A stretch of DNA of 64,000 bases from a virus (taxonomy: Duplodnaviria; Caudoviricetes): positions 1 to 64,000 of IMG/VR virus record IMGVR_UViG_3300001598_000004; one strand, given 5' to 3'. The notes under the pieces are model-generated. The model worked only from the letters and a program-made list of their open reading frames with translations. It was not told where the DNA came from and did no database searches. The position numbers were made by a program, and so were the translations under genes. Shown piece after piece: positions 48,616 to 49,341 of this stretch; within the stretch, counting starts at the first letter, position 1, and the number at the start of each line of letters is the position of its first letter.

Positions 48616-48684
48616 ATCTTAAAGTATATTAAAAGATTACTTTGTTTTAATATTGTTTGGATTATTCTTTATAATTTTGCCTCC

Positions 48685-48779
48685 GCAATCAGCGTTATCG
48701 AGTGGCTCGGCGCATCGGGTATTTGGTTGGAAAAGACGAGGGTTACATCAGGTGGGGTGCGTTGTGCCTGAGCTTTTTT
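48685..48779 (+). ncRNA. Putative ~95-nt sRNA convergent with the nuclease gene
   Basis: TAATTTTG at 48672-48679; GC-rich structured stretch; TCAGGT/GCCTGA hairpin followed by T6 at 48774-48779. Confidence 0.55.
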
Positions 48780-49341
48780 ACAACTTGTGTCTATGTATTT
48801 TTCCATTCAAACCTATCACCCAGACATGAGTAAGATTTCCTCTCTTTTCTATTGGTGTATTGTCGGTGTACTGCTTTAATTGAGATAGTACATATTTCTT
48901 ATCGGCTTTAGGAGTGTTTTGTACGAGGATAGCCACATTCACGCCTTGCTCGCTTGCTTTTGTTAAAGCTTTATCTATTGTGCGACTACCCGCAGAATTA
49001 ATTGTTTTTACATCAATCATTGCGTGGTCAACAAAGCCGTCGTATTTCTTTACACCTTCAATGTACGACTTTTCACTCATTAAGTACGTCCTGTAGCCCC
49101 TTTTAGCAAGGACTTGTGCCGCATAATCTTCTCTATTATCGTTATTATTGCCTTCTCCTAACTCGCCAATATGAACAATCTCATTATGGTCTTTATGTAT
49201 CATGTAAAAGCCACTACTTTCATCAAAGTAGGACTCTCGATAGTTGCCTGTCGCAACAAGACTATCATATACGTCACGCCTACTCCTATACGCAGCAGAG
49301 CTGCTACTGTAGTATCTCGTTCCTCCTGCTTGCTTTGTCAT
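48778..49341 (-). CDS. CdiA-C-like (tRNase-type PD-(D/E)XK) nuclease, stand-alone
   Basis: EDYAAQVLAKRGY...KKYDGFVD...DVKT...KASEQG motif series. Confidence 0.7.
   Translation of the reverse strand: MTKQAGGTRYYSSSSAAYRSRRDVYDSLVATGNYRESYFDESSGFYMIHKDHNEIVHIGELGEGNNNDNREDYAAQVLAKRGYRTYLMSEKSYIEGVKKYDGFVDHAMIDVKTINSAGSRTIDKALTKASEQGVNVAILVQNTPKADKKYVLSQLKQYTDNTPIEKRGNLTHVWVIGLNGKIHRHKL

Follow-up and report, generated by a model that had tools for sequence, protein, structure and literature searches.

Polymorphic toxins, such as those of CDI, Rhs, T6SS and MuF systems, are understood as being paired with protein immunity factors. RNA antidotes are, to our knowledge, known only from type I and type III systems, with different toxins and layouts. 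In the Bacillus type I pairs txpA/RatA and bsrG/SR4 the layout is convergent, tail to tail, with the terminator at the toxin stop, and RalR/RalA illustrates that type I toxins include a nuclease. Relatives of the CdiA-CT-like toxin domain with solved structures cleave tRNA-Ala or tRNA-Arg, and CdiI proteins block them (PMC9086364). The same toxin domain family is already known on MuF polymorphic toxins of phages (PMC5576092), and in polymorphic toxin loci the immunity genes sit directly behind the toxin domain (PMC5576092, PMC3482391).

Here, we analyzed a phage locus in which the place behind such a toxin domain is taken by an RNA gene. The virus record is complete, has a length of 76,597 bp and carries direct terminal repeats; the stretch analyzed, called the window, is a part of it of 64,000 nt. 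An integrase-family match at 59357-59734 on the minus strand (29.5 bits) lies in a 413-aa open frame. Judging from this match and the direct terminal repeats, the phage is probably temperate. Around the locus, the genes all lie on the minus strand and are arranged as follows:

51438-52640, minus strand: large terminase
49916-51355, minus strand: SPP1-type portal
49500-49916, minus strand: VRR-NUC nuclease
49343-49522, minus strand: Cys-rich 59-aa ORF (phrog_34745), with a 23-nt overlap with the end of the VRR-NUC gene
48778-49341, minus strand: 187-aa nuclease gene
48616-48777: gap of 162 nt between the 187-aa nuclease gene and the gene of the 1963-aa protein
42724-48615, minus strand: gene of a 1963-aa protein with a papain-fold glutamine deamidase domain and a C-terminal ADP-ribosyltransferase domain

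In its N-terminal domain, the 1963-aa protein resembles the PHROG family 'Bxa ADP-ribosyl transferase' as well as head-morphogenesis (MuF-like) families. Pfam Phage_Mu_F had no match anywhere in the phage genome. The protein appears to belong to the family of Bxa-type prophage polymorphic toxins (PMC11699363), as a member with several toxin domains.

An earlier note, made from the window sequence, had read the 187-aa protein as a stand-alone CdiA-like PD-(D/E)XK nuclease, and this assignment held. With Pfam CdiA_C (PF18451) the protein scored 18.2 bits (E 0.003), under the gathering cut-off of 26.6 bits. Homologues found with the family profile exceed the cut-off, namely P0033 (32.6 bits), P0043 (26.9 bits), P0120 (30.0 bits) and P0150 (47.7 bits). 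Since the protein itself is below the cut-off and its remote homologues are above it, membership in CdiA_C follows by transitive homology only. A sequence search of the PDB with the 187-aa protein revealed nothing significant. An AlphaFold (AF2) model was built from eight homologues and reached a pLDDT of 79.5. The best PDB match of the model was 4g6v_A, the tRNase toxin CdiA-CT of Burkholderia pseudomallei 1026b (VIA-align Z 9.3, rmsd 3.6; 120/132 residues aligned at about 19% identity). Foldseek against the PDB returned 4g6v_A with an E value of 8.6e-4 and no other match below 1e-3. The next members of this toxin family were 5j4a_C (CdiA-CT E479, Z 5.5) and 4g6u/4zqu (Z 3.8); generic PD-(D/E)XK nucleases also came after 4g6v_A. 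Residues E90, D101, D110 and K112 are invariant in alignment A2 of the nuclease homologues. In the distant set A7, the counterparts of this E..D..DxK signature are D95, D104 and K106, which are invariant, and E84, which is almost so. The catalytic residues of 4G6V are E187, D214, D223 and K242 (PMC9086364).

A profile search of 1.8 billion representative proteins detected 146 relatives of the nuclease. Many of these are C-terminal domains of proteins of 300-850 aa, the N-terminus being MuF-like or portal plus MuF, and several of the MuF-like fusions exceed the CdiA_C cut-off. Fused forms of the toxin domain were found only among distant homologues, and the window protein starts with the toxin domain. 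Because many of the profile relatives are C-terminal domains of MuF-like proteins, the 187-aa protein is a diverged stand-alone copy of the known MuF toxin domain. On the evidence of the model it is a stand-alone CdiA-CT-like PD-(D/E)XK nuclease and a putative toxin, probably of the tRNase type. A scan of genome contigs for the nuclease protein detected no relatives, a DNA search of phage GenBank entries gave nothing matching, and PADLOC and NCBIfam gave no meaningful matches. We also considered that the nuclease ORF is cut off at an A-run and that the gap is its frameshifted C-terminus. This was ruled out, as the homologues have 162-187 aa and the same end point. An N-terminal motif M-x-K-x-SGGTRNY (window residues 1-15) is common to the stand-alone members (P0009-P0021) and absent in the MuF-fused forms. 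The SGGTRNY motif may direct sorting or processing of the protein, such as its loading into the capsid.

The absence of a downstream protein immunity ORF had also been pointed out before, and comparison with the relatives bears this out. No conserved downstream protein ORF was found in the gap across the compared loci, which have gaps of 130-160 nt. A 45-aa ORF on the minus strand (48669-48806) has neither a start ATG nor an open frame in L001, a relative with 81% identity. Conservation is likewise lacking for the ORFs that cross the gap on the plus strand; both were rejected as partners. The 59-aa ORF, which the earlier note had named as an alternative partner, was dropped as an immunity protein because it is not co-inherited with the nuclease: it occurs without the nuclease in L246, and elsewhere the nuclease occurs without the ORF. 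The copy in L246 is 43% identical and lies between portal and MuF, with no nuclease cassette.

The gap itself contains the following elements:

48672-48679, plus strand: promoter box TAATTTTG, a Bacteroidetes-type -7 box (TAnnTTTG) of the small RNA, invariant in alignment A4
about 48686-48780, plus strand: structured small RNA of about 95 nt, matched by covariance model R1, with the 5' end placed from the promoter box and the 3' end from the terminator

Covariance model R1 scored the RNA with 76.7 bits (E 1e-17) and found it as a single copy in the 76.6-kb phage genome. The RNA stretch has a G+C content of 52%, compared with 27-28% in the adjoining spacer. According to the terminator scan, a hairpin at 48748-48771 is followed by T6 at 48774-48779, and only the plus strand has this T-run. 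It extends into the complement of the nuclease stop codon (48778-48780), and the overlap between RNA and nuclease ORF amounts to about 3 nt. Thus the rightward promoter box, the GC-rich stretch of about 95 nt and the plus-strand-only terminator at the stop codon, all listed in the earlier note, were all present. Promoter and terminator scans of the window sequence alone gave scores near background. The invariance of the TAnnTTTG box, the U-run on the plus strand only and the strand-specific pairs described below indicate that transcription of the RNA would run toward the nuclease gene. On these comparative grounds the gap carries a real RNA gene on the plus strand.

Rfam 15 had no match in the gap (E up to 10) or at the RNA sites of eight related loci (E up to 1). 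No tRNA or tmRNA was found by ARAGORN. Tandem Repeats Finder revealed no repeats in the RNA; its single find was an AT-rich item of 19 nt in the spacer. We rejected HMP2_1881, a Bacteroidetes RNA that is expressed and located close to radical-SAM genes (PMC8040213), as the identity of the RNA, since sequence and context differ; strings of the RNA core were absent from the searched supplements of PMC8040213. A degenerate DNA pattern of the RNA core was searched in viral contigs. The matches were mostly chance G+C-rich sequences, and this search was not used.

The tail-to-tail convergent layout with the terminator at the stop codon is in line with a type I-like antisense control. The nuclease mRNA would read through the gap, thereby gain a 3' part to which the RNA is fully complementary, and pair with the RNA there; RNase III cleavage and decay would follow. 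The toxin would be held down at the level of its mRNA, and the stem-loops would serve only for stability and fast loop-loop docking. With the U-run of the hairpin on the plus strand only, there is no terminator for the sense strand and sense transcripts should cross the RNA gene, as this mechanism requires. Predictions of RNA duplexes with the nuclease translation start speak against it, as no conserved complementarity was found there and z was near 0 in 10/11 loci. We consider antisense control the main rival of the reading proposed below and, taken with the comparative data that follow, an unlikely one.

Single-sequence folding of either strand was no better than that of shuffled sequences (RNA z = +1.25), so that the structure rests on comparison only. 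Loci were therefore gathered from viral and metagenome contigs, and the plus-strand versions were aligned. RNAalifold, unaided, returned P2, P3 and P4; P1 and the loop-loop contact were added by inspection. The curated alignment contains 19 distinct sequences, with the gap placement corrected for P1, and yields these elements:

48687-48696, plus strand: 5' strand of P1, AAUCAGCGUU, pairing with 48735-48744; 89.5% canonical cells, all 10 pairs compensatory
48735-48744, plus strand: 3' strand of P1, GACGAGGGUU, from the curated alignment
48697-48702, plus strand: 5' strand of P2, AUCGAG, pairing with 48722-48727 (UUUGGU); 94.7% canonical, independently found by RNAalifold
48705-48720, plus strand: P3 hairpin, GCUCGG, loop CGCA, UCGGGU; all cells canonical (100%, 19 sequences), two of the pairs being invariant G.U
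48748-48779, plus strand: P4, an intrinsic terminator with stem UCAGG/CCUGA, a 14-nt loop and U6, from terminator scan and covariation
48758-48761 with 48711-48714, plus strand: kissing contact of the P4 loop (UGCG) with the P3 loop (CGCA); 97.5% canonical, 5/5 pairs compensatory

Before the gap placement was corrected, 87.4% of the cells paired in the proposed structure, compared with 37-43% when the partners are slid. Pairs changed on both sides number 22, compared with 8-11 with slid partners, and none of 500 shuffles was as good (0/500). Between RNA types, P3 swaps C-G to G-C and G-C to A-U. The stem of P4 covaries as CAGG/CCUG, GUCGGG/CCCGAC, GCAAAG/CUUUGC and GUUAG/CUAAC, and the kissing loops occur as CAUAU/AUAUG, UACA/UGUA, UACG/CGUA and CGCA/UGCG. 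Over the 19-sequence alignment, 471/499 cells are canonical on the plus strand and 370/499 on the gene strand; owing to the G.U pairs the structure fits the plus strand only. Comparison of the 19 relatives thus supports four helices and a loop-loop contact by compensatory changes. The idea of a structured RNA facing the nuclease is therefore borne out by comparison. The CGAG-TGG-CTCG hairpin that had been drawn for it is not the conserved fold, its bases being split between P2 and P3.

The same alignment bears on antisense control. The core of the RNA is 71-97% identical where the third codon positions of the nuclease are only 30-42% identical, that is, saturated. This favours selection on the RNA sequence itself, as pure antisense action would not require such conservation and antisense pairs co-vary automatically. 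The conserved intramolecular kissing contact (5/5 compensatory) would have no role in pairing with an mRNA; it sets the three-dimensional shape and would compete with mRNA docking.

The linkage between the nuclease and the RNA was followed across loci. Seven close homologues of the nuclease (41-81% identity) were found, and each is followed by a gap of 130-160 nt that can be aligned to the window gap. Their neighbourhoods comprise portal/MuF, QueF/QueC, FolE-QueD-QueE, DNA methylases, ParB-methylase/SAM synthetase and a position upstream of the terminase, so gene and RNA occur together in at least six different gene neighbourhoods. In other phages the cassette adjoins genes for DNA modification, queuosine precursors, terminase and integrase. 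In phages whose portal is related (53-63% identity), the MuF-like gene comes immediately after the portal gene, without the nuclease or the RNA; one of these phages has retained the 59-aa ORF. Since nuclease and RNA are both missing there, the two were gained or lost together as one cassette. From these comparisons, nuclease and RNA form a mobile two-gene cassette of Bacteroidetes phages. An embedding in a head operon, as had been suggested from the window, is therefore not a fixture of the system.

The covariance model detected exactly one copy of the RNA per locus in 23/23 loci, directly behind the nuclease stop and convergent to the gene. An antisense TAnnTTTG box was present 52-181 nt behind the stop in 21/22 stand-alone loci. 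It was also present 50-126 nt behind the stop in 28/30 additional loci of the toxin domain, the majority being fusions to MuF-like N-termini, with no protein ORF between stop and box in those 28/30 loci. As background, 0.08 boxes are expected per 135 nt, and when every ORF end of these loci is counted, toxin genes included, no more than 15% have one. In stand-alone relatives with 26-50% identity, the gap sequence is no longer recognised by R1 and the layout is kept: an A-run and hairpin at the stop, a G+C-rich stretch of 60-150 nt and the antisense TAnnTTTG box. For the RNAs of these remote relatives, the assessment used only the promoter box, the terminator and inspection by hand. An automated test for loop-loop complementarity gave mixed results among them: it is visible in L208, L231, L240 and L245 and not evident in L226, L232, L233, L241, L243 and L244. 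The MuF-like fused forms have a shorter version of the RNA, with box and terminator hairpin at the stop kept and the RNA sequence unrecognisable.

Such persistence has to be weighed against an independent phage small RNA, which would regulate host or phage genes in trans or insulate transcription and would be a mere passenger of the cassette. Unrelated functions are often bundled in phage accessory cassettes, and nothing in the data is a direct sign of interaction with the nuclease. On the other side, the RNA was located elsewhere in 0/23 loci, and the pairing persists where the proteins have diverged to 26% identity, where the RNA sequence has turned over completely and where the toxin is fused instead of stand-alone. 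We regard an independent RNA as highly improbable. Conservation of the pairing reaches well past this phage and speaks for a functional partnership.

Several further observations were made at these loci. The short RNAs located 50-130 nt past the toxin-domain stops of L258-L320 often share a motif, which reads GGTTACCCC, GGTTGCACC or CCCTAACCC on the gene strand; in the window RNA, the 3' strand of P1 contains GAGGGUUAC. The shared motif may represent a common recognition element across RNAs that cannot otherwise be aligned. Among the phages with the cassette (homologue loci L009, L010, L011 and L002), genes for 7-deazaguanine precursors (FolE, QueD, QueE, QueC, QueF) are often adjacent to it, and others encode DNA methylases and a SAM synthetase. 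These neighbours place the cassette in regions of DNA modification or anti-restriction. Intein-splicing domains were observed inside the GTP cyclohydrolase I gene of L011 (2050-4008) and inside the large terminase genes of L009 (5833-7425) and L012 (2384-4510). The cassette is common in human-gut phage contigs and may for this reason shape competition among Bacteroides lysogens.

Based on these data, we propose that the RNA is an antidote that binds the nuclease directly. Comparison of the loci establishes that there is an RNA gene, how it folds, on which strand it lies and that it is strictly linked to the nuclease family; we infer transcription, toxicity, binding and neutralisation. In the proposed mechanism, the nuclease gene of the cassette would encode a CdiA-CT-type PD-(D/E)XK nuclease, the stand-alone form of a toxin domain carried by MuF-like head proteins. 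The RNA gene, transcribed from its own promoter toward the nuclease gene, would give an RNA of about 95 nt that adopts a definite fold in three dimensions, in which a long P1-P2-P3 arm kisses the loop of the terminator hairpin with its tip. This RNA would replace the protein immunity gene of polymorphic toxin systems. It would bind the nuclease directly and hold it inactive in the producing cell, that is, in the lysogen or in the cell assembling virions. As the RNA occupies the slot of the immunity gene, an antidote role is the simplest reading. The core conservation and the kissing contact described above point to the protein rather than the mRNA as the target. The fused forms point the same way, as the target of an antisense RNA would there be an essential head-protein mRNA, whose knockdown would be harmful. 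Direct binding has a precedent in the phage AbiF toxin, which is neutralised in this way by the structured RNA RCd22 (PMC12373285). Counterpoints to direct binding are the convergent layout, which is typical of type I (antisense) systems, the missing tandem repeats and same-strand arrangement of all known type III systems, the loop-loop complementarity that is not evident in several remote relatives, and the CdiA_C score of the window protein below the cut-off. A counterpoint to any antidote is that a virion-carried nuclease made just before lysis might need none. We therefore hold the directly binding antidote tentatively, at a little short of an even chance.

Another kind of direct partnership is a ribonucleoprotein in which the RNA acts as a working partner of the nuclease, as cofactor, specificity element, substrate or chaperone, for example in capsid loading or target choice. 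Any direct partnership between protein and RNA would accord with the strict linkage and with an RNA core that is conserved in sequence, and the SGGTRNY motif of the stand-alone proteins, absent in fused forms, could be a sorting signal. However, the characterised PD-(D/E)XK tRNases of the CdiA-CT type act without an RNA cofactor (PMC9086364), hardly any variable part of the RNA is unpaired and thus available as a guide, and the RNA lies in the immunity-gene slot directly behind the toxin domain (PMC5576092, PMC3482391). A working partner is therefore quite unlikely in our view. Returning to the antidote, its extension to the whole family is that stand-alone and MuF-fused nucleases alike, abundant in Bacteroidetes phages of the human gut, would use a dedicated folded RNA as immunity factor, and that this RNA would plug the tRNase by a tRNA-like or other specific surface, with the invariant tandem G.U of P3 and the kissing-loop fold as candidates. 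This wider proposal is possible, and we put it forward with more reserve. Action of the RNA as a substrate mimic is speculation.

If the antidote reading is true, no earlier polymorphic toxin system would have had an RNA as immunity factor, and the cassette would be a new architectural class of protein-RNA toxin-antitoxin pair. A conserved RNA in the immunity slot of a CdiA-CT-type toxin would link the fields of polymorphic toxins and RNA antidotes. It would explain the apparent lack of immunity genes behind such phage toxin genes and provide annotation pipelines with a rule for finding hidden RNA partners. The RNA would also be a new family with a clear tertiary contact, suited to structural study.

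Literature searches found no RNA antidote or partner described for polymorphic, CdiA-type or MuF toxins, and the pairing of nuclease and RNA appears to be undescribed. Within a toxin domain group that is already known, the protein is a new and diverged member, and the RNA is a family without a match in Rfam. With CdiA-CT/CdiI of Bp1026b (4G6V) and E479 (5J4A), the nuclease shares the fold class, the catalytic signature of acidic residues and lysine and the nature of a polymorphic toxin domain. In contrast to CdiA-CT, the window protein has an additional N-terminal helix and a beta-hairpin with a conserved H-x-x-HN, and it is not part of a CdiA protein; an RNA gene stands in place of the CdiI protein gene. 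The MuF polymorphic toxins (Jamet et al. 2017, PMC5576092) and the Bxa-type prophage toxins of Bacteroides (PMC11699363) likewise place a phage toxin domain in or near the head-morphogenesis module. Unlike in MuF toxins, the toxin domain stands alone here, without an N-terminal MuF domain, and is accompanied by a convergent small RNA gene and no protein immunity gene.

The type III systems ToxIN, CptIN and TenpIN and the AbiF/RCd22 pair would be alike in the proposed logic, a structured RNA neutralising a nuclease by direct binding. They are also often linked to phages, and tertiary contacts of the RNA (pseudoknots) are important in them. In contrast to known type III systems, the RNA has no tandem repeats and is single-copy, downstream and convergent with its own promoter, rather than upstream on the same strand. 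The toxin has a PD-(D/E)XK fold and not a ToxN/Kid-like or HEPN/Abi_2 one. The convergent type I systems of B. subtilis, txpA/RatA and bsrG/SR4, have the same tail-to-tail layout, an RNA with its own promoter that ends at the 3' end of the toxin gene and a prophage setting. However, the toxin here is a soluble nuclease enzyme of 187 aa and not a small hydrophobic membrane peptide, and antisense action leaves the internal kissing contact and the conserved primary sequence unexplained. In summary, the system misses the defining features of type III and fits type I in layout only.
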